A stretch of DNA of 64,000 nucleotides from Escherichia phage heid: the sequence record MN850577.1; one strand, given 5' to 3'. The notes beneath the pieces were generated by a model. The model was not told the DNA's origin, did not search any database, and saw only the letters and a list, made by a program, of their open reading frames with translations. The position numbers were made by a program, and so were the translations under genes. This document shows positions 1,293 through 29,901 of this stretch, one piece after another. The number at the start of each line of letters is the position of its first letter. Positions within the stretch are counted from its first letter, which is position 1.

Positions 1293-1541
1293 TTAGTTGT
1301 AACCTTGTTTATTGTAGTACAGTGAGATAATCAAGTCACCCCAGTAATGATAGTGATGCTCGTCGTTTAATGCCTCTTTTACAGCGTCTTTCCAGAAGTC
1401 ATCAGTAGGGTTATAATCTGGGATAACTTGCTTGATAACTGTCTTCACTAATGAAAAGCATTCATCAGTTCCACCGATATCAAATTTAACGTCCAGAGTA
1501 TAACAGCCATAAGCATTGACAGTTGCGCGGATAGTTGCCAT
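1293..1541 (-). CDS. Hypothetical small early protein (82 aa)
   Basis: ORF with AGGAG Shine-Dalgarno 8 nt upstream and conserved family A promoter/UTR element. Confidence 0.55.
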   Translation of the reverse strand: MATIRATVNAYGCYTLDVKFDIGGTDECFSLVKTVIKQVIPDYNPTDDFWKDAVKEALNDEHHYHYWGDLIISLYYNKQGYN

Positions 1542-1636
1542 TTTTTGAATCTCCTAGTTTAAGGACTTTACTTAGTGGGGAAGGTCATTCCCTCCCCGTT
1601 GATTAGTAATTTACTGCATGTTGGCGTATGTTGCAA
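1542..1636 (-). promoter_or_regulatory. Family A early promoter/5' UTR element: -35 TTGCAA (1631-1636), 17-bp spacer, -10 TAAATT (1608-1613), stem-loop 1577-1597, SD AGGAG
   Basis: Seven copies of a conserved ~70-bp element; the -10 contains the stop codon of the upstream gene; hairpin with conserved core and covarying stem. Confidence 0.55.
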
Positions 1637-1874
1637 GCCTTTTTTCGTTGTATTTTGTCAGAATCTCACAAGATAAAACATCATATTTTGTAACCGCTTT
1701 GCCTTTGTCGAGGTCAAAGAATCCGAACGCTTTACCATCTTTGAATCCGACAACTTCGTAAGATTCTTTGATGATTTCACCATTGAACAAATCACTTTCG
1801 ATACGGTGAAATAATGCTACATCTTCTTTGTCGGTTGCAATTTGTAAAAGTGTGGTTAATTCTACGTTTTCCAT
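1611..1874 (-). CDS. Hypothetical small early protein (87 aa)
   Basis: ORF preceded by family A element. Confidence 0.55.
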   Translation of the reverse strand: MENVELTTLLQIATDKEDVALFHRIESDLFNGEIIKESYEVVGFKDGKAFGFFDLDKGKAVTKYDVLSCEILTKYNEKRLATYANMQ

Positions 1875-1963
1875 CTTGATGCCCCTAGTTTAAGGATTTT
1901 ATTGAGTGGGGGAGGTCATCCCCCGTTAATGAGTAATTTACAGATTTTTGATTGTCTCGTCAA
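1875..1963 (-). promoter_or_regulatory. Family A early promoter/5' UTR element: -35 TTGACG (1958-1963), 17 bp, -10 TAAATT (1935-1940), stem-loop 1908-1924
   Basis: Conserved element; the -10 overlaps the upstream stop codon; stem GGGGGA/TCCCCC. Confidence 0.55.
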
Positions 1964-2468
1964 TGTCTTTTTCAATATCTTTTAAAGTTTTTTCTAAGTT
2001 CTTGATATTGAAAGATAAACCCTCTCCCAATGTTTTGCTGTAACCACTAGGGCGCAAGTCATGCAGTTCGATTTCTTCCACTTCGAAGAGACTAACCAAC
2101 TCACCGCTTACACTGTAAGCCATTGAAACAGTATTTACAGGGGCTTTATAGAACTTGTTTAAGGACTTGATAGAACGCTCATAAGCCATTTTATAACCGT
2201 TTAAAAGGTCTTTAACGTGGTTGCGAACGTTTTTACACTCATCTAAGTAAATCCCTAAGAATAGCGGTAATAACTCTGCTACAGCTTGCATAAAGTGAGA
2301 GACTACAACGGTTGCAACATTACGACGATGTACATAATAAGCCCCATTTTCTGATTTAGTGATGGTTGCAAAGTGTACCCCATTGCAGCGAAATTCGTAG
2401 GTATCTTTAACAGGCTTAGCCATTACAGCATTTGAACGAATGTAGTTGATAGCTTGAAATTTGTTCAT
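1938..2468 (-). CDS. Hypothetical early protein (about 176 aa; ATG at 2468 preferred over the track's longer start)
   Basis: Conserved SD plus ATG context shared with the other early genes. Confidence 0.5.
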   Translation of the reverse strand: MNKFQAINYIRSNAVMAKPVKDTYEFRCNGVHFATITKSENGAYYVHRRNVATVVVSHFMQAVAELLPLFLGIYLDECKNVRNHVKDLLNGYKMAYERSIKSLNKFYKAPVNTVSMAYSVSGELVSLFEVEEIELHDLRPSGYSKTLGEGLSFNIKNLEKTLKDIEKDIDETIKNL

Positions 2469-2560
2469 TTTTGAATCTCCTAGTTTAAGGACTTTATTTA
2501 GTGGGGAGGTCATTACCTCCCGTTGATTAGTAATTTACTTGTTTTGATATCTGATTGCAA
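2469..2560 (-). promoter_or_regulatory. Family A early promoter/5' UTR element: -35 TTGCAA (2555-2560), 17 bp, -10 TAAATT (2532-2537), stem-loop 2503-2521
   Basis: Conserved element; stem variant GGAGGT/ACCTCC. Confidence 0.5.
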
Positions 2561-2628
2561 GCAATTTTTTAAGTTTATCTATAAAGAATCTTTTAAGTTA
2601 ATCCCTTTTAGATAAACCCCCTCGAACA

Positions 2629-2657
2629 AATCTACCAATGTCAAGGGGCGTTGTCAA
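2629..2657 (-). promoter_or_regulatory. Additional sigma70-like promoter: TTGACA, 17 bp, TAGATT
   Basis: Hexamers and spacing read from sequence in the 150-bp non-coding gap 2541-2689. Confidence 0.4.
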
Positions 2658-2689
2658 TACTTTTTTGAAAGTTTTTTGTAAGTTATTGA

Positions 2690-3031
2690 TTAACTGATGA
2701 ATATTTTTTCAGGTTTTACATAGCTGATACGCTGACTTTTTAGCAGGTCATCCCAGATTAACGCGGCGATATGGGCATAACCGGATTCACGTAAAAGCTT
2801 CATTGTTTTACTTCTCGTTTCAAAACGGCTTGCGTAGTACTCACTATTTAAAACCGTTTTATTCCCTTCGTTATCTACATGGATAATCTGCATCACTTGA
2901 AAGGGGCTTGTGTCCTCGCCTTTGTTCCACTGTTCAAAGTATTTTAGGCACTGCATAGGTGACATCTTATCACTTACTTGAGTTGACCAAGATGAATTTT
3001 CTTTATCGGTAATTACGGTTACATAAGCCAT
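2690..3031 (-). CDS. Hypothetical early protein (113 aa)
   Basis: ORF with family A element upstream. Confidence 0.5.
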   Translation of the reverse strand: MAYVTVITDKENSSWSTQVSDKMSPMQCLKYFEQWNKGEDTSPFQVMQIIHVDNEGNKTVLNSEYYASRFETRSKTMKLLRESGYAHIAALIWDDLLKSQRISYVKPEKIFIS

Positions 3032-3125
3032 TTTTGAATCTCCTAGTTTAAGGATTGTACTTAGTGGGGAAGGTCATTCCCTCCCCGTTGATTGACAATT
3101 TACAGATTTTTATCAGGCTTGTCTA
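3032..3125 (-). promoter_or_regulatory. Family A early promoter/5' UTR element: -35 TAGACA (3120-3125), 17 bp, -10 TAAATT (3097-3102), stem-loop 3066-3086
   Basis: Conserved element; the -35 overlaps the stop codon of ORF 3123-3356. Confidence 0.5.
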
Positions 3126-3356
3126 GTCTTTTTCAATGATAATTTCATACTGACCATCTACGCTGTCAAAATAGATACCGTCTTCATCTTCTGTCTTAAA
3201 GTAACATTGTATATCATCACTAGCGGGATAGTCTTGTCTTGCTATCTGACAGACCTGAACAGCATTTTCTTTACTTCCTGTAAACTCCTCAAGCCCTTTA
3301 AAATCACATGAATGACCATTACAAATAGAAAGGATAAGATAAACGGTTGTAAGCAT
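3123..3356 (-). CDS. Small protein with hydrophobic N-terminus and cysteines (77 aa), possibly secreted or a lipoprotein
   Basis: N-terminal LILSICNG resembles a signal/lipobox; SD AAGAGG. Confidence 0.4.
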   Translation of the reverse strand: MLTTVYLILSICNGHSCDFKGLEEFTGSKENAVQVCQIARQDYPASDDIQCYFKTEDEDGIYFDSVDGQYEIIIEKD

Positions 3357-3369
3357 GATTTAAGCCTCT

Positions 3370-3390
3370 TAAAAGCCCCTGTGAGGGGCT
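3370..3390 (-). terminator. Intrinsic terminator-like hairpin
   Basis: AGCCCC-TGTGA-GGGGCT followed on the minus strand by UUUU, between ORFs 3423-3965 and 3123-3356. Confidence 0.4.
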
Positions 3391-3422
3391 AATCAGTGTT
3401 TATAAGGTGATTGCATAGGTTT

Positions 3423-3965
3423 TTAGAAAAAGCTCTTTAAATCTCTCTCTGTGATGTTTCCCGCTAGTGTATCCATGATGTCACAAAAAACCTGAATACT
3501 ATCCGACTGTTGAATACTTTTAGCAAGAAGCTCCAGAGACTCATCAAGATAATTTAAATTTGGGTTATCCAATGAAGGAAGACAAAAAGGCGAAAACATC
3601 GCATTAAACTCGGTTACGTAAACCTTTTTAATCCAATTTAAATCGAAGTATTCTGTAAAACTTGCTACGCCAGACATATTATCACAAGAATAATCATCAT
3701 TCAGGTCATCCTCTGGGATATCAAGTTCTAAGATAACAATATTTTGGGTTTTCATCTGGAAAGCGGCCGTAATAGTGGCATTACCTAACGCTTGCTGGAT
3801 GCCTTCGGCTGTTATCTCTTTCTCATCGTCGCCATAGATTTTATTTTCTGGATACACGTAAAAATTGCCGTCCATGTCCGAACAATTCCATGCACCTGAT
3901 GGCTTGTCACCGTTATTAATCAGGTTGAGGAAATTTTCTTGAGTAGTACCGTGAAAGCATTTCAT
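3423..3965 (-). CDS. Acidic hypothetical early protein (180 aa)
   Basis: ORF; strongly acidic composition; N-terminal HGT and YVY motifs of unknown meaning. Confidence 0.5.
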   Translation of the reverse strand: MKCFHGTTQENFLNLINNGDKPSGAWNCSDMDGNFYVYPENKIYGDDEKEITAEGIQQALGNATITAAFQMKTQNIVILELDIPEDDLNDDYSCDNMSGVASFTEYFDLNWIKKVYVTEFNAMFSPFCLPSLDNPNLNYLDESLELLAKSIQQSDSIQVFCDIMDTLAGNITERDLKSFF

Positions 3966-4055
3966 TTTTGAATCTCCAGTTTAGGATTTAGTGGTAAAGC
4001 TCTTTATCTGGGGCTTACTTTATCGAACTATAAGCCCCTTGTAAAGTACTTTATT
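3966..4055 (-). promoter_or_regulatory. Family B intergenic element: 16-bp near-palindrome TGTAAAGTACTTTAT containing -35 TTTACA and the upstream stop codon, GC hairpin 4010-4038, -10 TAAAGT, SD
   Basis: Four near-identical copies of about 90 bp; -35/-10 spacing 17-18 bp. Confidence 0.45.
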
Positions 4056-4254
4056 TGTTATTTTTTACTACTTTTAAAACCGCACGATAGCCTAAGCAAT
4101 AGGAATCACCGAAGAGCGACCGACCCATGAAGGAGTCCTCTGTAATATCTTTCGCCGTGACGGTTTTTTCTACGCCGTGAAAGAGAACTACATCACCGAC
4201 TTTAATATCTTTGATGTGTGTAGTTTCAATGGTTAAACCGTTAATAATAGCCAT
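4051..4254 (-). CDS. Hypothetical small early protein (67 aa)
   Basis: ORF with family A element upstream. Confidence 0.5.
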   Translation of the reverse strand: MAIINGLTIETTHIKDIKVGDVVLFHGVEKTVTAKDITEDSFMGRSLFGDSYCLGYRAVLKVVKNNK

Positions 4255-4346
4255 TTTTGAATCTCCAGTTTAGGACTTTATTTAGTGGGGAAGGTCATTC
4301 CCGCCCCGTTGATGTGTAATTTAATCTATCTGAAAACCAATGTCAA
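4255..4346 (-). promoter_or_regulatory. Family A early promoter/5' UTR element: -35 TTGACA (4341-4346), 17 bp, -10 TAAATT (4318-4323), stem-loop 4287-4307; A-tract upstream of -35
   Basis: Hexamers and spacing read from sequence; T12 run at 4347-4360. Confidence 0.55.
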
Positions 4347-4360
4347 CAATTTTTTTTTTT

Positions 4361-4765
4361 TTAGAGTTCTGCATAAATTGCATCACAGATACCACGAAAA
4401 TCATGATTTGTCAAATTACGTTGTAACCAAGTGGCGAAAAAGTCAGCGATTGCAAAGTTAGCGTCATACTCGACAGATAGCCACACTTTAACAGCAAACC
4501 GAAACATTTTCAAATCAAGCTCTTTATTCATTACCTTAGATTTGCCTAACATGTCGGACATTTCATATTGTGCACCGTCTAGCGTGATACCTGCTGCAAC
4601 GTCAGCCAATGAGTTTTTTACGTTTTCAACGTCTAAGATAACGCTTTGAATCTTCCCAATAATGTTGTGCAATGTTTCGTCCGGTGCTGATGACGTAATA
4701 ACATTAATCCGGTTAACGGTCAAACGTGCTTTTAAGATTGATAACTCGCGATTATTAATAGCCAT
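4361..4765 (-). CDS. Hypothetical early protein (about 134 aa; ATG at 4765, the track start is a TTG)
   Basis: SD GGAGAA 7 nt before ATG. Confidence 0.5.
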   Translation of the reverse strand: MAINNRELSILKARLTVNRINVITSSAPDETLHNIIGKIQSVILDVENVKNSLADVAAGITLDGAQYEMSDMLGKSKVMNKELDLKMFRFAVKVWLSVEYDANFAIADFFATWLQRNLTNHDFRGICDAIYAEL

Positions 4766-4856
4766 TTTTAAGTTCTCCAATTTAGGATTTAGTGGTAAAG
4801 CTCTTTATCTGGGGCTTACTTTATCGAACTATAAGCCCCTTGTAAAGTACTTTATA
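4766..4856 (-). promoter_or_regulatory. Family B intergenic element (palindrome 4841-4856 containing stop codon 4852-4854, hairpin 4811-4839)
   Basis: Conserved repeat copy. Confidence 0.45.
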
Positions 4857-5124
4857 CTAAATGCAGCTTTTTACCTTTTACTATGATGTAACTCGATGCG
4901 CTATTGCTTTGCACATCCTGATAAATTCTGCGCAAACGGCCTTCGTAGTATACTTTCCAACTGGTTGGAATCTTTTTCCCGTATCCTGTAGCAGTTTTTT
5001 GTAGTCCTGCAAGTTGCCAATCTAAGATATGTTGTTCGGCTTGTAAATCCTCGAAGTGCATTACACCGTTCACATAGTGACGAAGGGTTACGTTTAAGGT
5101 GCGACCGTTGTTAGTAGTATACAT
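4852..5124 (-). CDS. Hypothetical small early protein (90 aa)
   Basis: ORF with family A element upstream. Confidence 0.5.
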   Translation of the reverse strand: MYTTNNGRTLNVTLRHYVNGVMHFEDLQAEQHILDWQLAGLQKTATGYGKKIPTSWKVYYEGRLRRIYQDVQSNSASSYIIVKGKKLHLV

Positions 5125-5215
5125 TTTGAATCTCCTAGTTTAAGGACTTTGTTTAGTGGGGAGGTCATTACCTCCCGTTGATTAGTAATTTACTTGTTTT
5201 AAAAACCAAAATCAA
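5125..5215 (-). promoter_or_regulatory. Family A early promoter/5' UTR element: -35 TTGATT (5210-5215), 17 bp, -10 TAAATT (5187-5192), stem-loop 5157-5176
   Basis: Conserved element; the -35 overlaps the upstream stop codon. Confidence 0.5.
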
Positions 5216-5544
5216 GAGAAATTTTTTCGTTTGCTCAATTCTTGAACAATTACAGCGTAGTAGTCTTTTAAGTCACTGACATTTAAAGCATTTATCAGAG
5301 AATTATAATCATCGACTAACTGAAAATCATCTTTGAAAATGTCGCTGATTTGATAAGTTTTTGATTGAAATCTGAAGCTCATTTCTAACCGTTTTATTTG
5401 TTCATCACTTAAACGCTCCAGAAAGCTCATTACAAGGCTATTATTGACCTGTTGCGTGATTGCCTTATTTGCTAGATTATAGGCTTTATATGCCTTATAT
5501 AGCGCGAAAATGGCAATGATTGCAGTGATACCAGTCATTAACAT
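5212..5544 (-). CDS. Small membrane-anchored protein (110 aa)
   Basis: N-terminal hydrophobic segment MLMTGITAIIAIFALY; SD AGAGGAAA. Confidence 0.5.
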   Translation of the reverse strand: MLMTGITAIIAIFALYKAYKAYNLANKAITQQVNNSLVMSFLERLSDEQIKRLEMSFRFQSKTYQISDIFKDDFQLVDDYNSLINALNVSDLKDYYAVIVQELSKRKNFS

Positions 5545-5834
5545 GGTGTTTCCTCTTTACGTGATACTTTGCCATTTACAGTTATCTCATAAGAATCTAG
5601 TAAGTCACTTTTAGATTTTACTGGACTTTTAAAAGTATCATCATAAATATTTACTTGCAATACAGGTTTTTTATACTCCCTGCAACTATTCCATAAACAA
5701 ATCACTACACGACGGCCTTTTATTTTACCGTGCAACCATTCCATAACATCATGATTATTTCTTGATGTCTCGATAAAATCAATTTTGTTGAGTAACTTGC
5801 TTAGATTTTCACGAACTTTATTGGATAATTTCAT
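5538..5834 (-). CDS. Hypothetical small early protein (98 aa)
   Basis: ORF with conserved SD context. Confidence 0.5.
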   Translation of the reverse strand: MKLSNKVRENLSKLLNKIDFIETSRNNHDVMEWLHGKIKGRRVVICLWNSCREYKKPVLQVNIYDDTFKSPVKSKSDLLDSYEITVNGKVSRKEETPC

Positions 5835-5926
5835 TTTTGAGTCTCCTAGTTTAAGGGTTAATTTGATAAAGCTCTTTATCTGGGGCTTAAGATATCAACT
5901 TTTAAGCCCCTTGTAAAGTACTTTAT
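5835..5926 (-). promoter_or_regulatory. Family B intergenic element (hairpin 5882-5910 with stem GGGGCTTAA/TTAAGCCCC and a different loop; palindrome 5911-5926)
   Basis: Stem conserved while the loop differs from the other copies. Confidence 0.45.
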
Positions 5927-6183
5927 CAGATTAAATTGCCAGTTAATGATAAGTGCATTTTGTAACCTTGTTTAGTGAATACGTTCACTTTACCGAGTGT
6001 TTTTACACCTTTAAAAAGGTTATTTGAACTGCGTTTTAAGGTTAAATGTTTATCAGCCTTCACGCCCCACCTTACATTAGATTGTTTTCCGTTGTCAACC
6101 ACTTTCCCGCATAACTTTTTAGCCATAACGCGAGCGTCATCACGAGTTTTTGCAGCAATTACAACGTTTTTGATAATAGCCAT
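5926..6183 (-). CDS. Basic hypothetical small protein (about 85 aa; ATG at 6183)
   Basis: ORF; same SD context as 4361-4765. Confidence 0.5.
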   Translation of the reverse strand: MAIIKNVVIAAKTRDDARVMAKKLCGKVVDNGKQSNVRWGVKADKHLTLKRSSNNLFKGVKTLGKVNVFTKQGYKMHLSLTGNLI

Positions 6184-6273
6184 TTTTAAGTTCTCCAATT
6201 TAGGATTTAGTGGTAAAGCTCTTTATCTGGGGCTTACTTTATCGAACTATAAGCCCCTTGTAAAGTACTTTAT
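6184..6273 (-). promoter_or_regulatory. Family B intergenic element (hairpin 6229-6257, palindrome 6258-6273 containing stop codon 6270-6272)
   Basis: Conserved repeat copy. Confidence 0.45.
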
Positions 6274-6650
6274 TTAATTTTGAAGATAGTTACGTAACCA
6301 TCACTACCGATTATTTGAGACACTCCAGCTTTTTCTACTTGATAGCCCATATTTTCAAGATGATAAACAGCATCATCATAACCATATGCGCCACCCTGAT
6401 AACGTCTCTTATCGCATTTTATCAGGTTTTTACCACGTCCCGCAAGTGCATGCAAAATGGCTTTTTCACTTGAAAGAGTACCATCTAGCATTGTCGCCGT
6501 GTAATGGTTGATTTTATTCCCGTTAATATCATACTTGAAATTGAACGAGTGAACAACAATAACGTTACCTTTAAAATTCTCATCAAGTGACTTCTCCAGT
6601 ACGCTACGAAAGTTGTCTTTGTTGATGAATTTAGGTGCACGATATTTCAT
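6270..6650 (-). CDS. Hypothetical early protein (126 aa), first gene of the early array
   Basis: ORF with family A element and a strong promoter upstream. Confidence 0.5.
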   Translation of the reverse strand: MKYRAPKFINKDNFRSVLEKSLDENFKGNVIVVHSFNFKYDINGNKINHYTATMLDGTLSSEKAILHALAGRGKNLIKCDKRRYQGGAYGYDDAVYHLENMGYQVEKAGVSQIIGSDGYVTIFKIK

Positions 6651-6745
6651 TTTTGAATCTCCTAGTTTAAGGACTTTACTTAGTGGGGAGCGTCATTCCC
6701 CCCCCCGTTGATGCAAATACTAGATAACCCCGTTCAAAGAGTCAA
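6651..6745 (-). promoter_or_regulatory. Family A variant: -35 TTGACT (6740-6745), 17 bp, -10 TAGTAT (6717-6722), stem-loop 6685-6706, SD AGGAG
   Basis: Best sigma70 match in the array. Confidence 0.55.
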
Positions 6746-6866
6746 TAAAAATTTTAAAAATATTTTTGGCAAAACTGTAATGAAACGGGTGCGCACGACT
6801 ACCACAAAACAGAACGCAAATCAAGAATTATTTTTCAATCCGCTACAAATTTTTCTCTTGACTTTT

Positions 6867-6902
6867 GGGGAGAGGGGGAGTAAGAGGGGGAGAGGGGTTG
6901 GG
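6867..6902 (+). other. G-tract cluster (GGGG AGA GGGGG AGTAAGA GGGGG AGA GGGG TT GGG), a canonical G-quadruplex-forming motif
   Basis: Five G-runs of 3 or more with loops of 2-7 nt, in an otherwise AT-rich genome. Confidence 0.5.
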
Positions 6903-6922
6903 CTGGCTGTCTATAAAAACCT

Positions 6923-7100
6923 ACCTGCACAATTCTAAAATGATTTTTCTTGCCCGACCTGAGCGGGGTCTGCACGTTTTGAAAATGAAAAAGCTCTTTG
7001 GAGATTACCTGCACAGTTTGAAAATGAATTTTCTCTTTGGAGTTCAAAATTTTCTCTACAGATTTCTCTACAGAACTCTACCTGCACAATTCTGAAATGA
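6923..7100. repeat. Four direct repeats of about 21 bp, (T)ACCTGCACA(R)TT(Y)TGAAAATGA, at 6923, 6970, 7007 and 7080; two copies extend to a 38-bp tandem unit ending CTCTTTGGAG
   Basis: Read directly; non-coding region between the macro-like gene and the early-array promoter. Confidence 0.6.
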
Positions 7101-7173
7101 AAAAGCCCTCCTTACCTGAAAAATTTACCAGATAAGAAAGGCTTAGGCTATTGTGAATATTCTACAGAGTTTC

Positions 7174-7959
7174 TTAGTTCTTTGCGTCTAAGAAGGTAAC
7201 TTCTGGTGAAGAGAAAACTGTCTCGATATCCTCATCAGTTCTTGCATAGATATAAGTATCTGCATCACTGCCAAATGTTACTGCAATCCTGTGATTGCTC
7301 TTCGACAGGTGGGTAACTAGAGCGTTACTCAGAGACATCTTTTCAACCGGAGGGTTACTTTGATGTATCTTACCTTTTCTTCGTCTGAAGAGGGTAACTG
7401 CGTTATCTGTGAACACTGCTACACCTGCAAAGTATTCTGGTTCACAGTAGTTCTTCCAACCTGAGCGTAACTTGTGGTACATCTCTCCTTCGTAGACATA
7501 AAGATACACATCTACACTCTTCATCACCTGATTAATGATAACTGTGACGGCTTGAGGGTCTAGCCCACCGATACCTGCACCAATCATAGGTAAACCAACC
7601 TTCTTCAACTGGTTGACTTCACAGTATCTGTTAAGCTGTTTCAAAGATGACTCTAAAGCACTGTATCGGGCATCTTTACCAGTCTTAAGCTGAGTGTAAA
7701 GGTTAGCTATACGACCTTGTTTTAAACGTGCTACAGAGAAATTACCCAGTAAATTTTCACAGGGTTTGTGTCCTATACCACCTGCATATAGATAAACTTC
7801 TGTATCGGTCTCATATGCTTTTGGGTAAAGTTTAGAAATCTTGTCAGCGATACCTGCACCCATTAAATTCATACAGTTGCAACCGTGACCGATGATGTCA
7901 AACTTACCTTTATCAAATGCGGCAAAGATATCACCATTGATTATTTTTACAATACCCAT
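7174..7959 (-). CDS. Macro-domain-like protein (261 aa), tentative ADP-ribose binding/hydrolase fold, with a C-terminal extension of unknown function
   Basis: Motifs GHGCNCMNLMGAGIA and LPMIGAGIGG resemble the macro-domain N-x-x-N/G-rich loops; call from motif memory only. Confidence 0.4.
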   Translation of the reverse strand: MGIVKIINGDIFAAFDKGKFDIIGHGCNCMNLMGAGIADKISKLYPKAYETDTEVYLYAGGIGHKPCENLLGNFSVARLKQGRIANLYTQLKTGKDARYSALESSLKQLNRYCEVNQLKKVGLPMIGAGIGGLDPQAVTVIINQVMKSVDVYLYVYEGEMYHKLRSGWKNYCEPEYFAGVAVFTDNAVTLFRRRKGKIHQSNPPVEKMSLSNALVTHLSKSNHRIAVTFGSDADTYIYARTDEDIETVFSSPEVTFLDAKN

Positions 7960-8159
7960 TTAACATCTCTCCCAAGATTCTTTATCTTCTGAAGGTTTTA
8001 CACGTTGCCCCTCATGGTCTACCCAGATACATCCACAACCTTCACAGATTACTGGCATTGCATAGCCAGCTTTAAAGTCATCTTCAGTGATAAGACCTTT
8101 TAAGTCACCTGTATCACGTCCAAACATTTCTATAGAACAGTCTTTGCAGAAGTCAGCCA
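7960..8159 (-). CDS. Small Cys-rich protein (about 66 aa), putative zinc-binding
   Basis: CxxC and CEGCGC motifs; ATG overlaps the stop of the upstream ORF. Confidence 0.4.
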
Positions 8160-8380
8160 TTGATAATTGCCTCTTGAATGATGATACCTTTACCACAACG
8201 GCTTTTAAAGTCTTCCAATGGTTGGGAGATGAAGCCACGCAAGCAATCACTAAATACTAAGTTTTTCCTGTAGGCTATCACATCGTTTGCTGTAAACGGG
8301 ATGACTTCATTTCTTCCAATGAATACTGCTGACCGGATGAGTTTCCGTGTCTTTTTATCTCTGGCTAGAATTACTCTCAT
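8153..8380 (-). CDS. Hypothetical protein (75 aa)
   Basis: ORF in operon context. Confidence 0.4.
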   Translation of the reverse strand: MRVILARDKKTRKLIRSAVFIGRNEVIPFTANDVIAYRKNLVFSDCLRGFISQPLEDFKSRCGKGIIIQEAIING

Positions 8381-8681
8381 AATTTACCTTCTCAGTTAGC
8401 TCATATAAATCAACATGCTCAATACTATCAATGTTGATATCAATCTTTTTGAAGCGTTCTATCACTTCATTGTCAGTCATCCATATCAGACACCAATGAT
8501 TCTGGATGGATTCTTCAAGAAGTTCAACACAATCTTTAAAAGTTTTTGTATCACTTCTTGTGCCTACTACTGCGATTGTTCCATATAGCCACTTACCATT
8601 GCCATAAGATACTTGTGCTACGCCAACTTCTTTACCTTTCTCGTAGTAAACGGCTACAAAGTCTCTTCCATTAATCTGCAT
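8355..8681 (-). CDS. Hypothetical protein (108 aa)
   Basis: ORF. Confidence 0.4.
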   Translation of the reverse strand: MQINGRDFVAVYYEKGKEVGVAQVSYGNGKWLYGTIAVVGTRSDTKTFKDCVELLEESIQNHWCLIWMTDNEVIERFKKIDINIDSIEHVDLYELTEKVNYESNSSQR

Positions 8682-8683
8682 AG

Positions 8684-8956
8684 TTACTTCCTCGTTTTGA
8701 GAACTGCTAAGATTTCTTTAGAGTCTGGTAAGAACCATGTGTAGTGATTCTCTTTGATTTCTGGATGAGTGTCAACCTTTATTTTGCACTCTTTACCAAC
8801 ATGCTTAAGCTGTGCTGTGATACCTTGCATAAAGATGTGACACATTACATTATCCATAATCGTAGGTAAGAAATCAATCCTCATGTAAGTATCTTTCGGT
8901 CTCGGTAGAAGTAAGTAACCTTCTGTGTAGAAAGTTTCATCATTACTTTGTGTCAT
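8684..8956 (-). CDS. Hypothetical protein (90 aa)
   Basis: ORF. Confidence 0.4.
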   Translation of the reverse strand: MTQSNDETFYTEGYLLLPRPKDTYMRIDFLPTIMDNVMCHIFMQGITAQLKHVGKECKIKVDTHPEIKENHYTWFLPDSKEILAVLKTRK

Positions 8957-9515: not shown

Positions 9516-9995
9516 TTAACCGAGGACTTTAGCAAGGATATTTGCAGCCATCGAAGAAGCTTTTGCAGCAGCAACTACGCCAGCCTTGACAGTGCTATCC
9601 TTAATAGCAGATACCGTTGCAGCATCAGTAAAGAGATAAGTGATTGTTTTGGAACCACTTGTAAAGGAAAGCATAAGAGTAGTTTCCAGATTGAAAGAGC
9701 GATATGGAGCACCTTCTTTAACGATACCTTCAGCACCTAACTCTGAAGCCTTACCCATATCATAGATAGTCATCAGATTTTCTTTGTGTGCAGTCGTTGA
9801 ACCAGCACCTTTTACGTGCTTCTTAACGTTTAACAATGCACGATATTCACGAATGCTGCCATCAGCTTTTACATTAACAGCACGGAAAATTTTACCTTCA
9901 AAGTTACCTTGAATCATTTTACGAACTACTTCAGATTTGTTTGCCGTATCGTCCAGTGCTACCGTAATGATATTGTTCATAAGTTCTTCTCTCAA
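9516..9995 (-). CDS. Hypothetical protein (159 aa)
   Basis: ORF. Confidence 0.4.
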   Translation of the reverse strand: MREELMNNIITVALDDTANKSEVVRKMIQGNFEGKIFRAVNVKADGSIREYRALLNVKKHVKGAGSTTAHKENLMTIYDMGKASELGAEGIVKEGAPYRSFNLETTLMLSFTSGSKTITYLFTDAATVSAIKDSTVKAGVVAAAKASSMAANILAKVLG

Positions 9996-10687
9996 TGTTT
10001 AACTAACATGGTTTTAATGTGTGGAAGGATTCTGTTTACCTTCTGAACATTCTTCTCTGTATCTTCTATAAAGCATACTATATTAAAGTAAGGAAGAATG
10101 CAAGACTGAATCATCCTCACTTTCAAACTTTCTGCACTTATAGAGTTAGTTCCAAAACCACGCATAAAAAGCAAGTAATCATGCTCTATATTGTGCCTTA
10201 AAAACATCTCAGTAGGTATTCTCTGAGATTCACCTCTTGCTGTCAAGAGTCCAACTGCTGCATGATTTGCAATTGCATCAATAATGTTGAAAACATATGT
10301 TGGTTTTGCTCTTACAGAATCAAGAAGATTAGTGTACTGTGAGAATGACCCATCAGTCAATTCCGTTGAGCAATCTTCATGATTAAAATTTGTAAGAACA
10401 CCATCAATATCTGCTAAGATGAGGTTACCTTTTTCTACAAGGTCTTTATTGACTATCACTAAACTATCACGCCTTACACCTATAGTTTGTCCAGTCTCTT
10501 TGTCCACAACGTTCACAATGGGTTCTGATGTGTGGAACTCTTCAAGTGAACATACAACCTCTCTTGCAGTGTCTTCAAAATCTCTGCACTGTTCTGGAGT
10601 CCATACACAGGAATCAAGACCTAACTCATGAGGATGCAAGTCATAAGCGTGGCACAGGACTTCATCAGACTTTTTTAATTTTTTCAT
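9992..10687 (-). CDS. HAD-superfamily phosphatase-like protein (231 aa)
   Basis: Motif I LILADIDGVLT (DxDG) and C-terminal FIEDTEKN. Confidence 0.4.
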   Translation of the reverse strand: MKKLKKSDEVLCHAYDLHPHELGLDSCVWTPEQCRDFEDTAREVVCSLEEFHTSEPIVNVVDKETGQTIGVRRDSLVIVNKDLVEKGNLILADIDGVLTNFNHEDCSTELTDGSFSQYTNLLDSVRAKPTYVFNIIDAIANHAAVGLLTARGESQRIPTEMFLRHNIEHDYLLFMRGFGTNSISAESLKVRMIQSCILPYFNIVCFIEDTEKNVQKVNRILPHIKTMLVKH

Positions 10688-15444: not shown

Positions 15445-17226
15445 TTAAAGCTGCTTGTCAATATTATTTCGAATATCACCAAGAGTTGTGTAACCAAACT
15501 GCTCAGAGTCACTAAAGACTAAACGTAAAGCACAAGCTGGGTGGTCAAGTACATCTGCAAAACTCTGGAATCCATAGCCATCTACAGCTTTCAGCTTACC
15601 ACCATCCCACATAGGTGCTACACCACCAAAGGCAGATTTCTTAACACCACTATCTGTTTTAGGGTCTTTTGCAAGCATAATCTCTTTACCACCAATGCTT
15701 GCAAGAGTTGCTTTGACAGCAAATGCAAAGGTGTCACGAGTCATGTACTGGTAAGTGTAAGAACCTACGCCAAACACTACGTTAGAGCTTGCAAAACCCA
15801 TTTCATACAGACGCTTCAGGATTTCGTTTGCACGTTCCAGCGTGATAGAGTCACCATAGATAAGTCCGATATGCTCATCCAGTACCTTAAACCCTTTAGA
15901 GTTAATAGTTCCCCCAAAGATGTTGTACAGTGTCTTAATAGCTCCATCAATCTCAGCTACAGGACGTGTTACAACGTTTGCAGAACCAACCATATAAGCG
16001 TTTTTCAACAGCACTGTATCAGCAACTTCAAAGTCTTCTCTGTCAACAACCATTTCGTAGCCTTCTGACAGTAGCCATCCAGCAATACCATAATTGATGT
16101 TTTCAAGCTTCATGTTCAGAACAGCATTCAACATTGTGTCACTGGCTTCAAGCTTGCTTAAGTGTTCGTAATAAGCCTTTTTAGCACACTCTAAGTGGAT
16201 TGCTTTATAACCTGTGACAATATGTACAGGGTCTCCAGAGTCAGGACGAATTACCAGTTTACCGTCACGTCCCATAATCTCTTTGCGAAGTGCTGGTAAG
16301 ATTTCTGACACAGTTCTCCAGAAGTTATAAGTGTCTGAAACAACACTTGCAATACCAGTTGGGTAAGTTTCTGTTAAGAAACGACGGAAGGTTTGTAACT
16401 CACCTTTAAAGCGTCTTTCTTCTTCAATCAACTCATTACCACCTTCCCAAGCAATGTTTGCACACATTACAGAGTGCTCAGTGGCTGGTACAGAGCTACC
16501 AATATCAGAGATTGGGTAGGACTGTCCATAGATTCGTTTAGCCGTATACACAGCAGGGAAGCTATCAGTTCCTTTAAAGCTGGTTAAGTGGCCTACAGCG
16601 TTAAATGCGTCATCAGTAAAGCCGGACATACCACGCATAGCAAAGTCATGGCACTGATAAGGCAAATGCAAGTCGTTGTCACAAGTAAGGTCAGCCCACT
16701 TCTTACAGATACGTTTGTAGTGCAATGCAATAGTTGCAATGGTACAAGCCTTCCAAATCTCAGCAGAGAAAGCATCTTCCAGATAACCTGCTACCCAATG
16801 GAAACCTGAAACAGTGTTCTGGAAAACAATCATTGGGACACGCATAGGGACAACTGTACCTTCTTCTACAGCGTATACTTCAACTGGTAGATAACCTAAG
16901 TCGTGAAGTGCTTCCCAATGCTCTCGACTGATAGCATCTTTACCCAGAACACCATTCATGACTTCTAAGATTTCATCAATGGCTTCTTTTTTATCACGTT
17001 CAAAGAAAGTGGCGTTCCAGTGGTCTATCAAGTAATCTTTAACGAAACGTTGAATACCAAAAGCTACTACACCATCAATTGCTAAGGGGCTGTTAAACCA
17101 TTTGTCACTACGTGGTGTCAGGTTGAACATCAAGTACTCTGTTGCACTAGGGTACTGGTAAACATGACCAGATTTGTAAGCATCTGCGTTTAAACCTGCT
17201 GGTACTGCATAAAGTGATTTAGTCAT
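15445..17226 (-). CDS. Nicotinamide phosphoribosyltransferase-like protein (NAMPT/NadV family; candidate Namat of an NAD+ reconstitution pathway)
   Basis: 593-aa ORF with overall NAMPT-like features; adjacent to a PRPP-synthetase-like gene. Confidence 0.6.
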   Translation of the reverse strand: MTKSLYAVPAGLNADAYKSGHVYQYPSATEYLMFNLTPRSDKWFNSPLAIDGVVAFGIQRFVKDYLIDHWNATFFERDKKEAIDEILEVMNGVLGKDAISREHWEALHDLGYLPVEVYAVEEGTVVPMRVPMIVFQNTVSGFHWVAGYLEDAFSAEIWKACTIATIALHYKRICKKWADLTCDNDLHLPYQCHDFAMRGMSGFTDDAFNAVGHLTSFKGTDSFPAVYTAKRIYGQSYPISDIGSSVPATEHSVMCANIAWEGGNELIEEERRFKGELQTFRRFLTETYPTGIASVVSDTYNFWRTVSEILPALRKEIMGRDGKLVIRPDSGDPVHIVTGYKAIHLECAKKAYYEHLSKLEASDTMLNAVLNMKLENINYGIAGWLLSEGYEMVVDREDFEVADTVLLKNAYMVGSANVVTRPVAEIDGAIKTLYNIFGGTINSKGFKVLDEHIGLIYGDSITLERANEILKRLYEMGFASSNVVFGVGSYTYQYMTRDTFAFAVKATLASIGGKEIMLAKDPKTDSGVKKSAFGGVAPMWDGGKLKAVDGYGFQSFADVLDHPACALRLVFSDSEQFGYTTLGDIRNNIDKQL

Positions 17227-17271
17227 CTTTTAATCTCTCTCAAAATGGGGCTTTTAAGCCCCTATAAACTT

Positions 17272-18168
17272 TCAATCAAGGTTTGCTACAGTAACTTGAC
17301 TGTAATGTGTTAAGCCACGGTCTTTAGCTTCGCCTAAAGAGTTTGTAGTGTAAATATGGTCGATACCATTGTCAAGAAGGTTTTCAACATCTTTAGAGAA
17401 GATACCATGTGTTACATAAAGTTCCACACGTTTTGCACCTGCTTCACGAAGATGCTTCGCTGCTTCTATGAAGGTTCGACCACCATCACAGATATCATCC
17501 AGAATCATGACGGTTTTATCTGTCAAATCAACATCATCAAGGATTCGCATACCAGTAATTTCACCAGTCTTAAGGTTACGCACTTTAGACATTGTGATGT
17601 ATGGTTTATCCACCTCTTTAGCAGTCTCTGCAATCTTCTTAGCAGCACCTGCATCTGGGGCTACTAAGTAATCAATCAGTGGGTCATTTGCATAGTGGAC
17701 TGCAATTTCCTTTTGAGGAATACTCTGGAAGCAGTTAAACAGGTTATCTGGTACATAGCTGTGAGGGTCAACTGCACAGACTGCATCAAAACCCATTGCA
17801 TTAACCTGTTGTGCAAACACTTTCAAAGCTGCTGCATCACCTTTAAACATGTGACGGTCGTAACGTGCATTTGGCAAATAGTAAAAGATAGCAGTCTTCA
17901 TAGCAAACTTATGAGGTACTAAATCATCAATTGCTTCTTTAGCAAGTGCCACAGCAAACAATGTGTCCTTATCATAACCTTTTACAATCATAATCACATT
18001 GTTGATAGATGATGCTGCATAAGCAGTAAAATCAACAAACTCTGGCGAAAAGTGTCCACCAATCTCACCAGAAGGGAATTGGACGATGTTAAACTCTTCT
18101 TCATGAGTCCCTTTAGTTGGTGAATGAACTGTAACACGGATAGATGTTTTCATAGTTTTCTCTCTCAA
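17272..18168 (-). CDS. Ribose-phosphate pyrophosphokinase-like protein (PRPP synthetase family; candidate ADP-ribose pyrophosphate synthetase)
   Basis: Motifs VDPHS and MILDDICDGGRT (PRPP-binding loop variant). Confidence 0.6.
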   Translation of the reverse strand: MREKTMKTSIRVTVHSPTKGTHEEEFNIVQFPSGEIGGHFSPEFVDFTAYAASSINNVIMIVKGYDKDTLFAVALAKEAIDDLVPHKFAMKTAIFYYLPNARYDRHMFKGDAAALKVFAQQVNAMGFDAVCAVDPHSYVPDNLFNCFQSIPQKEIAVHYANDPLIDYLVAPDAGAAKKIAETAKEVDKPYITMSKVRNLKTGEITGMRILDDVDLTDKTVMILDDICDGGRTFIEAAKHLREAGAKRVELYVTHGIFSKDVENLLDNGIDHIYTTNSLGEAKDRGLTHYSQVTVANLD

Positions 18169-29403: not shown

Positions 29404-29901
29404 TCAAGCACAATTTGCTTTCATTACCTTATGGATTCTTTTTTCAGCATCTTCATAAGTTTCTTTAGTGATAAACTTAATTGCTGCAATATTGGCATTG
29501 TAGAAGAGTCTGAGCTTAGAGTCAATCCTTTTTGTCATTACATCGAATTTATGTTGAAGGTTTGCTTCACCATAGACTAGGCCACCTTTTGTGTAGTAGG
29601 TCTGAATAATGTAAAAGTCAAAAAATTCTTTTCCAAAACTCTCAATATCTTTTTTAATATACTCAGAAGAAGTCTCATAAGTCATCCAATCACTTTCCTT
29701 AGTGACTATCTTCTTCCGAGTCTTCCCAGCAACTTTTCTTTTGGTCACACTGTTAAACTGTTTCTTTCCGATATAATATTGTCCAGTCTTCTTACAGTGC
29801 ACTAAATAGACAAAGCCAAAATGTTTAGTGGGGTCAACTTCCCCACATAAAGATACCCAATGACCGTAGGTAGGGCAATTGCCAAATCCTTTAATCTTCA
29901 T
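29404..29901 (-). CDS. GIY-YIG-like endonuclease (165 aa), tentative
   Basis: FVYLVHCKKTGQYYIGKK matches the (G)IY-x10-YIG spacing. Confidence 0.35.
   Translation of the reverse strand: MKIKGFGNCPTYGHWVSLCGEVDPTKHFGFVYLVHCKKTGQYYIGKKQFNSVTKRKVAGKTRKKIVTKESDWMTYETSSEYIKKDIESFGKEFFDFYIIQTYYTKGGLVYGEANLQHKFDVMTKRIDSKLRLFYNANIAAIKFITKETYEDAEKRIHKVMKANCA

Follow-up and report, generated by a model that had tools for sequence, protein, structure and literature searches.

A macrodomain protein with an additional C-terminal domain in a Felixounavirus and its candidate roles in counter-defence

What does a macrodomain protein contribute to a phage that also carries enzymes for rebuilding NAD+ from ADP-ribose (ADPR)? 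The question arises in Escherichia phage heid (sequence record MN850577.1), of which one stretch of 64,000 nucleotides, the window, was analysed. Its macro gene, at 7174-7959 on the minus strand, encodes the 261-amino-acid (aa) macro protein, and the two genes of NAD+ reconstitution pathway 1 (NARP1) lie upstream on the same strand. Sequence comparison and structure prediction confirm the macro gene product as a predicted macrodomain enzyme of ADPR processing, kin by family to phage counter-defence proteins. By analogy with its homologues we favour the reading, at a probability of roughly 45%, that the gene encodes an accessory counter-defence ADP-ribosylhydrolase that would reverse DarT2-type thymidine ADP-ribosylation of phage DNA. 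The gene is probably expressed early.

The macrodomain family and its two roles are known already, from work published in 2025-2026, and much of our finding is anticipated there. The literature that we found does not describe the two-domain architecture, with its orphan fold, the universal linkage to NARP1 at a distance in cis within the lineage, or the allele swaps.

The source phage is a Felixounavirus (FelixO1-like myovirus), and over the 7 kb around the macro gene many Felixounavirus genomes from Escherichia and Salmonella match it at 93-96% identity. Salmonella phage DaR-2019a has a protein with 100% identity to the macro protein, whose orthologue in Bas63 (JohannRWettstein, BASEL) is gp95 (99% identity, 258/261). 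Bas63 gp95 (bas63_0095) carries the annotation 'putative phosphatase'; PHROG 335 ('phosphatase') is matched by the macro protein at E=1.9e-113, and in hundreds of genomes the gene is annotated as phosphatase, macro-domain protein or O-acetyl-ADP-ribose (OAADPr) deacetylase.

The macrodomain and its active site

The macro gene and the parts of its N-terminal domain are as follows.

7174-7959, minus strand: macro protein coding sequence (261 aa plus stop in the list of open reading frames (ORFs); ATG at 7959-7957, stop at 7176-7174)
7492-7959, minus strand: macrodomain, aa 1-156, of the ALC1-like/TARG1-DarG-Poa1p fold class and the phage Tk.4-type 'NxYTQ' group
7846-7887, minus strand: loop-1/active-site motif HGCNCMNLMGAGIA, aa 25-38 of the translation, with H25, N28, G34 and G36 conserved
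7690-7704, minus strand: NLYTQ motif, aa 86-90 of the translation, with Q90 at the catalytic-Lys position
7564-7590, minus strand: loop-2 (diphosphate-binding) motif PMIGAGIGG, aa 124-132 of the translation

An earlier note, made from the letters of the window alone, had given this ORF its exact boundaries; the strand is minus, as it is for every gene in this part of the window. The note's proposal of an N-terminal macro domain is upheld by Pfam, by a family profile, and by AlphaFold2 with Foldseek, and both of the loop motifs on which it drew were located in the translation. The Pfam match is to PF01661 (E=1e-7, 32.3 bits against a gathering cut-off of 22), from aa 25 to 141 and over positions 2-117 of the 118 in the profile. 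A profile of 30 homologues, searched against PDB sequences, found TARG1 (9e-17), M. tuberculosis DarG (2.4e-16), Poa1p (3e-14), SCO6735 (1.1e-13) and T. aquaticus DarG (1.1e-13). The same alignment was used for an AlphaFold2 model of the full-length macro protein, which has a predicted local distance difference test score (pLDDT) of 90.6 and a predicted template modelling score (pTM) of 0.89. The three-layer alpha/beta/alpha macro fold, on which the earlier note had staked its call, is present in this model. Foldseek against PDB, with the template modelling score (TM) normalised by target, placed TARG1 at E=3e-10 and TM 0.84-0.87, DarG at 0.84 and Poa1p at 0.76, and reached 242 PDB macro structures at E<=0.001.

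The macro protein has intact predicted ADPR-binding loops. The glycine-rich part of loop 1 (GxG after strand 2) is MGAGIA, aa 33-38, and the motif as a whole aligns with 'NTVNxVGVMGKG' of DarG and 'HSCNC' of Poa1p; H25, G26, N28, C29, M33, G36 and A38 are invariant across the 30 homologues. Loop 2 is near-identical to 'PPLGAGNGG' of DarG, with P124, G127 and G129 invariant. The alignment has 16 invariant positions in all.

Catalytic residues are another matter, both members of the TARG1 dyad being absent from the macro protein in the alignments. Q90, itself invariant among the homologues, aligns with the catalytic Lys of TARG1 (K84) and DarG (K80), and the residue aligned with TARG1 Asp125 is G131. 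The T4-type Tk.4 and every phage relative examined also have Gln at the Lys position; PhiKZ gp104 has Lys. The Thr before this position is common to the macro protein, TARG1, two DarG macrodomains and PhiKZ gp104.

A precedent for such an active site is SCO6735 of Streptomyces coelicolor (PDB 5E3B), in which Gln85 is the equivalent of the catalytic Lys; the mutation Q85A abolishes hydrolysis of thymidine-linked ADP-ribose (dT-ADPr) on DNA, with further contributions from Asn27 and His24 (PMC9411070). Because SCO6735 with Gln85 still cleaves dT-ADPr on DNA, without a catalytic Lys, the replacement of Lys by Gln is no sign of inactivity. Q90, N28 and H25 of the macro protein have the same spacing as Gln85, Asn27 and His24. 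By transitive alignment the two proteins appear alike in being ALC1-like, with Gln at the K84/K80 position and conserved His and Asn, but SCO6735 is bacterial, SOS-regulated and single-domain, and its mobile loop, which is longer, carries DNA-binding lysines. Human TARG1/OARD1 and yeast Poa1p, the best structural matches, have the HxxN/GxG and loop-2 architecture in common with the macro protein; they differ as eukaryotic housekeeping enzymes, and the macro protein lacks K84 and D125 of TARG1.

DarG was the only defence or annotation model matched, and through the macro part only: the PADLOC model at 3e-13 (positions 18-147 of 329) and NCBIfam NF048014, the DarG equivalog, at 9.5e-13 (positions 4-154 of 338), where 48.1 bits falls below the cut-off of 250. 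The DarG proteins of T. aquaticus and M. tuberculosis (PDB 5M31, 5M3E and 5M3I) resemble the macro protein in fold class, loop 2, active-site Asn and the layout of an N-terminal macrodomain followed by a second domain. They differ at K80, which is Gln in the macro protein, and in having darT adjacent. No darT lies next to the macro gene, where the neighbours are small phage ORFs without Pfam matches and the Bas63 and VpaE1 annotations are toxin-free; nor is there similarity between the macro protein's C-terminal domain and the DarT-binding domain of DarG.

Phage relatives and the proposed reversal of DarT2 damage

The closest characterised homologue is Tk.4 of phage T4. A 2025 HIDEN-SEQ preprint found that, of the T4 genes, tk.4 alone is needed for growth on cells that express DarTG2, confirmed this with a clean knockout and named the gene adfM, for anti-DarT factor Macrodomain (10.1101/2025.11.20.689424). 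T4-type Tk.4 (159 aa) is 35% identical to the macro protein (84.7 bits, E=3e-25). Both fall in the same phage macro group, with the motifs HGCNC, NLYTQ and IGxGIxGG in common and Gln in place of the catalytic Lys, and both come from a non-essential gene in the early region of a virulent myovirus with rII genes in its genome. The differences are that Tk.4 is single-domain whereas the macro protein has an extra domain of 105 aa, that T4 is without NARP1, and that the anti-DarTG2 phenotype has been shown for T4 only.

A further set of relatives comes from NARP1 operons. Poa1p-like macro proteins within these operons, termed Adpp, convert ADPR-1''-phosphate (ADPR-1''P) to ADPR; ADPR-1''P is the product of the RES-domain defence aRES, and its conversion rescues NARP1 (10.64898/2026.01.28.702374). 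Adpp of Vibrio phage Gary (its Table S1 sequence) is 26% identical to the macro protein (52.8 bits) and 39% identical to Tk.4 (85.9 bits), and the macro protein of the Adps-macro-Namat operon of Vibrio phage K412 is 28% identical to that of the window. Because Gary Adpp is 39% identical to Tk.4, AdfM of T4 and Adpp belong to one family. Like the macro protein, Adpp is a phage macrodomain of the Poa1p-like kind, has Gln at the equivalent position and occurs in phages with Adps and Namat, and this kinship would account for the 'phosphatase' annotation. Unlike it, Adpp is encoded between or next to Adps and Namat, is without the C-terminal domain, and has the motif NVYGQ rather than NLYTQ.

PhiKZ gp104, also called AdfM, removes DarT2 adducts in vitro; it differs from the macro protein in keeping the Lys (FPTK), and the identity is ~23%. 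Two non-orthologous proteins, PhiKZ gp104 (DarG-like, Lys) and T4 Tk.4 (Poa1p-like, Gln), have independently been named AdfM, and this double use will confuse annotation transfer to proteins like the macro protein.

In a neighbour-joining tree of 40 sequences the long-form Ounavirinae-type proteins make a clade (bootstrap 91) inside a 25-member NxYTQ group (bootstrap 100). This group also holds Tk.4 and one NARP1-operon macro protein, that of Acinetobacter phage phiAbaA1 (NAYTQ); branching within it has bootstraps of 1-2 only. Outside it lie the NARP1 macro proteins of Gary and phi3 (NVYGQ), Pseudomonas (NLYGQ), and K412 and RYC (NLHAQ), with TARG1 and DarG further out.

We chose the anti-DarT2 role because the closest characterised homologue, Tk.4, has the phenotype and because Gln-type chemistry is proven on dT-ADPr. 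The macro protein would bind an ADPR adduct in its loop-1/loop-2 cleft and hydrolyse the C1'' linkage, and catalysis would be Lys-independent, using a Gln/Asn-positioned water as described for SCO6735. The likeliest substrate in vivo would be ADP-ribosyl-thymidine on single-stranded phage DNA, made by host DarT2, and its removal would restore phage replication, as genetically reported for T4 Tk.4/AdfM. The same macrodomain site may also dephosphorylate ADPR-1''P, like many macrodomains. As to the gene being accessory, Bas63 gene 95 is dispensable on the laboratory hosts and defence systems of those PhageMaP supplement sheets that the analysis covered, with a fitness there of 0.6-1.1, against -1 to -3 for terminase; the main text of that knockout-screen paper mentions no gene 95 phenotype, and aRES goes unmentioned in it.

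Several points weigh against this role. It is argued from homologues, for the macro protein and for all Felixounavirus orthologues alike. Support from T4 tk.4 is genetic only and comes from a preprint (10.1101/2025.11.20.689424), dT-ADPr hydrolysis by Tk.4-type proteins being putative, and at 35% identity to Tk.4 the substrate specificity may differ. The residue equivalence with SCO6735 combines a published statement with the alignment to TARG1 and DarG, and is therefore transitive. An equally related family member, Gary Adpp, is an ADPR-1''P phosphatase, and the phage carries NARP1. The net charge of the C-terminal domain is not conserved and points neither to DNA mimicry nor to binding of DNA, and our view of that domain as a specificity or partner-binding module is a working inference. 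DarTG is absent from the systems mentioned in the Bas63 screen.

The NARP1 pair of the window bears directly on what else the macro protein might do.

15445-17226, minus strand: Namat, a NAMPT-like nicotinamide ADP-ribose transferase (Pfam NAPRTase and NAMPT_N; 98% to Bas63 gp80)
17272-18153, minus strand (ORF to 18168): Adps, a PRPP-synthetase-like ADPR pyrophosphokinase (Pfam Pribosyltran and Pribosyl_synth; 80% to Bas63 gp79)

Bas63 genes 79-80 are the operon in which NARP1 was discovered and experimentally proven: Adps pyrophosphorylates ADPR, and Namat joins the resulting ADPR-PP to nicotinamide. A pair of NAD+ enzymes at 15445-18168 had been recognised in the earlier note, and the pair stands; its description as salvage does not, since NARP1 uses ADPR and nicotinamide and not the classical salvage route. 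Because the substrate of NARP1 is free ADPR, any ADPR-releasing enzyme in the same phage is relevant. The macro gene lies 7.5 kb and 15 genes downstream of NARP1 (Bas63 g95 against g79-80). Wherever a long-form locus has enough DNA on its upstream side, Namat and Adps are found there at 7.5-9.5 kb and on the same strand, and long-form macro and NARP1 features each occur in 257 phage records, these being totals that were compared rather than matched record by record.

A strong rival, which does not exclude the anti-DarT2 role and which we hold to be possible at lower odds, is that the macro protein acts in trans with the phage's NARP1 as an Adpp-like ADPR-1''P phosphatase. In this chain host aRES cleaves NAD+ to nicotinamide and ADPR-1''P, which Adps cannot use; the macrodomain would turn ADPR-1''P into ADPR, and Adps and Namat would rebuild NAD+. 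The constant same-strand position of Namat and Adps upstream of long-form genes speaks for it, as do the orthology of the phage's NARP1 to the proven Bas63 operon, the homology of the macro protein to Gary Adpp and the K412 operon protein, the precedent of NARP1-operon Poa1p-like proteins that overcome aRES as ADPR-1P phosphatases, the rank of Poa1p among the best PDB matches, the place of the phiAbaA1 protein within the NxYTQ group, and the 'phosphatase' label in GenBank and PHROG. The residue that we take to be Poa1p Ser30 is however not conserved, L32 standing at the aligned position; the NxYTQ group leaves out the Adpp groups of Gary and Pseudomonas, and similarity to the tested Adpp is clearly below that to Tk.4 (52.8 against 84.7 bits). 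Co-occurrence with NARP1 in one lineage may be mere shared ancestry. The macro gene also lies outside the NARP1 operon, whereas Adpp is defined as within two genes of Adps or Namat (Osterman et al. 2026), and the macro protein is absent from Table S1 of 10.64898/2026.01.28.702374. Sequence cannot choose between reversal of DarT damage and supply of ADPR. Both had been guessed in the earlier note and both have experimental precedents among homologues, in Tk.4/AdfM and in Adpp of NARP1-AP operons; its third guess, degradation of ADPR-derived immune signals, found no specific support in this analysis.

General ADPR clean-up seems rather improbable to us, whether the macro protein were to act as a de-ADP-ribosylase of proteins or RNA modified by host ADP-ribosyltransferase defences, or on RNA-repair by-products (ADPR-1''P and Appr>p from Tpt1/KptA-type reactions) alongside a polynucleotide kinase (PNK). 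The best PDB relative, TARG1, is a protein and OAADPr hydrolase, and SCO6735 accepts proteins as well as DNA; the gene block also includes a PNK-like gene (9992-10687), Bas63 gp107 slightly resembles an RNA 2'-phosphotransferase structurally according to the PhageMaP text, and a survey by Iyer et al. connects macro genes of phages with gene neighbourhoods for early manipulation of the host and for RNA repair. Set against these are the missing TARG1 dyad (K84 and D125) and the annotation of the reference Felixounavirus genome, VpaE1, which across its whole length includes no ADP-ribosyltransferase partner, Tpt1/KptA or RNA ligase; the literature searched held no experimental phage precedent. 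It is very unlikely that the macro protein is instead a non-catalytic binder, or a degrader, of ADPR-derived immune signals such as the cyclic ADPR isomers of Thoeris, with the C-terminal domain aiding sequestration or oligomerisation. Macrodomains do bind ADPR derivatives, Iyer et al. see soluble ADPR signals as the main target of phage macro proteins, and certain other proteins of phages are reported to break down Thoeris signals and to supply NAD+ synthesis (10.64898/2026.05.28.727677). But H25, N28 and Q90 are invariant in 30/30 homologues, from 96% down to ~27% identity, which is typical of an enzyme; the characterised homologues target DarT2 damage or ADPR-1P, and the literature found held no homologue with a signal-binding or signal-degrading activity.

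The C-terminal domain and exchange of alleles

Next to the macrodomain, which is of a known class, stands a domain with no counterpart that we could detect.

7177-7491, minus strand: C-terminal domain, aa 157-261, with a linker helix, six beta strands and a short helix; lineage-specific

The extension had been put at about 110 aa. It measures ~105 aa, is predicted to be folded, and was assigned no function by profile hidden Markov model and fold searches. Its pLDDT is mostly 82-92 in the full-length model and 76.7 if modelled alone. In the model it packs against the macrodomain, and the pTM of 0.89 implies that the two predicted domains hold a fixed arrangement. Both domains evolve under purifying selection: over 19 distinct close alleles the ratio of non-synonymous to synonymous substitution rates (dN/dS) is 0.18-0.20 for the C-terminal domain and 0.07-0.08 for the macrodomain.

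The C-terminal domain is without detectable sequence or fold relatives outside its own lineage in the searched libraries. A phmmer search of 1.84 billion representative proteins returned its own family only, apart from a spurious low-complexity match, a repetitive actinobacterial protein (P0033) matching 'ADTYTFAAT', which was dropped. A profile search of 5.8 billion proteins added no further relatives, Pfam and NCBIfam gave no match and PHROG no significant one, and BFVD returned the SUSP2 orthologue alone.

Within the lineage the domain reaches further. Metagenomic contigs in which the macro gene likewise lies downstream of rIIA-rIIB-...-PNK encode distant syntenic homologues (P0010-P0019), and their extensions match the C-terminal domain in profile-profile comparison (probability 96%, E=1e-9). 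By this comparison the domain is ancestral to a wider lineage than the Felixounavirus orthologues. Identity to these homologues is 11-23% in the C-terminal domain and ~41-45% in the macrodomain, and on these figures the former evolves much faster.

The macro gene is also exchanged as a unit. In two Felixounavirus contigs from IMG/VR (L032 and L033) the gene body has been swapped, over window positions ~7122-7816, for what we call the type B allele, at 41% protein identity to that of the window (type A). The type B protein has 259 aa and the same two-domain layout. Upstream flanking DNA is ~94% identical and downstream DNA ~80-88%, and Namat and Adps are 97-98% identical. The swap looks like gene-sized, cassette-like recombination, typical of host-driven diversification, and would fit an arms-race gene. 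In relatives from Erwinia phages (L034:8483-9265 and L035:9998-10780) the protein has 260 aa, with a macrodomain of the same clade at ~44% identity. Their extension of ~105 aa gave no hmmsearch match to the C-terminal domain and an hhalign probability of 0.07, and was set aside as evidence on that domain, the sequences being unrelated. From these alignments the macrodomain seems to accept different C-terminal modules.

What might such a module do? An acidic DNA mimic or a basic DNA binder is unsupported, the isoelectric point ranging from 4.6 to 9.5 across homologues. We think it unlikely, if worth stating, that the C-terminal domain, as a partner-binding module of new fold, lends the macrodomain a second counter-defence activity. 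Such a module might capture or inhibit a DarT-like toxin, as an analogue of the DarG C-terminal domain with unrelated sequence, or might dock to Adps or Namat and so channel the released ADPR to NAD+ reconstitution. If the domain does bind partners, type A, type B and the Erwinia-type extension would represent allele swaps that match different variants of host defence.

Gene neighbourhood and significance

A block of host-takeover genes, all on one strand, starts with NARP1 and ends with the macro gene. The order of transcription is Adps, Namat, rIIA, rIIB, an SLT-like gene, a PseT-like PNK, spanins, small ORFs and the macro gene. The features that adjoin the gene are these.

7960-8160, minus strand: ORF of 66 aa with a CxxC...CxxC pattern, whose TAA directly abuts the macro ATG
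7103-7144, minus strand: terminator-like hairpin with a 17 bp stem, an 8-nt loop and a U-rich tail, 30 nt past the macro stop

It had been proposed that the macro gene heads an operon with four small unknown proteins at 7960-8956; those ORFs sit upstream, and the macro gene is terminal. Being on the minus strand, with the small ORFs upstream and a terminator hairpin downstream, it ends the transcription unit. The hairpin has an RNA folding energy of -24.6 kcal/mol (z = -3.07), and 0/200 shuffles were as stable. The abutting stop and start codons suggest that the 66-aa ORF and the macro gene are translationally coupled. The cysteine pairs of this ORF (FCKDCS...ICEGCGC) could form a zinc ribbon; it has no Pfam match, and VpaE1 and Bas63 keep it as a hypothetical gene of 201 nt.

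Beyond the hairpin, the intergenic region 6651-7173 matched no family in an Rfam scan. It contains four direct repeats of ~25-34 nt at 6910-7115 on the plus strand, with the core CCTGCACA(A/G)TT..GAAAATGA, and beyond them a C-rich tract on the minus strand (~6865-6905), then an A/T-rich stretch and a TTGACT-17-TAGTAT promoter at 6745-6717 on the minus strand, ahead of the next ORF (6270-6650), whose 5' leader includes a G8...C4 hairpin. Further on, from 1500 to 6700, intergenic elements of ~60-100 nt recur among the small minus-strand genes, for example at 6181-6275, 5828-5926, 4763-4855, 3960-4056, 3029-3103, 2466-2538 and 1542-1614. They cross-match at 80-100% identity, both inside the window and in related phages, and have the look of promoter/terminator cassettes repeated in the early region.

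Three other loci on the minus strand call for remarks on annotation or history. The ORF at 9992-10687 (231 aa) is annotated as a PseT-like PNK in relatives, and metagenomic homologues have weak HAD_PNKP marks; it has no Pfam match at E<=0.01, and the kinase label is weakly based. The ORF at 29404-29901 (165 aa) encodes a SegE-like GIY-YIG endonuclease (Pfam E=3.7e-28), and its positional counterpart in VpaE1 (RefSeq NC_027337) is labelled 'NAD synthetase', probably a propagated misannotation. Adps diverges from that of Bas63 over its N-terminal ~180 residues and is nearly identical in the C-terminal third, which suggests recombination within the gene. Several relatives have an HNH endonuclease gene between Adps and Namat; the window has none.

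Phage therapy and biocontrol commonly consider Felixounaviruses as candidates, and in Bas63 a tractable model is at hand. Learning whether gp95 counters DarTG2, aRES or both would lead to better prediction of host range, and its targets would show if one macrodomain family spans two defences based on ADPR and NAD. If gp95 does release ADPR or dephosphorylate ADPR-1''P, the NARP1 pathway would be extended from outside its operon, and the published figure of 15% for 'NARP1-AP' phages would be too low. The C-terminal domain, a predicted well-folded, selected and relative-less module on a known enzyme, offers a clean case for a new interaction domain.

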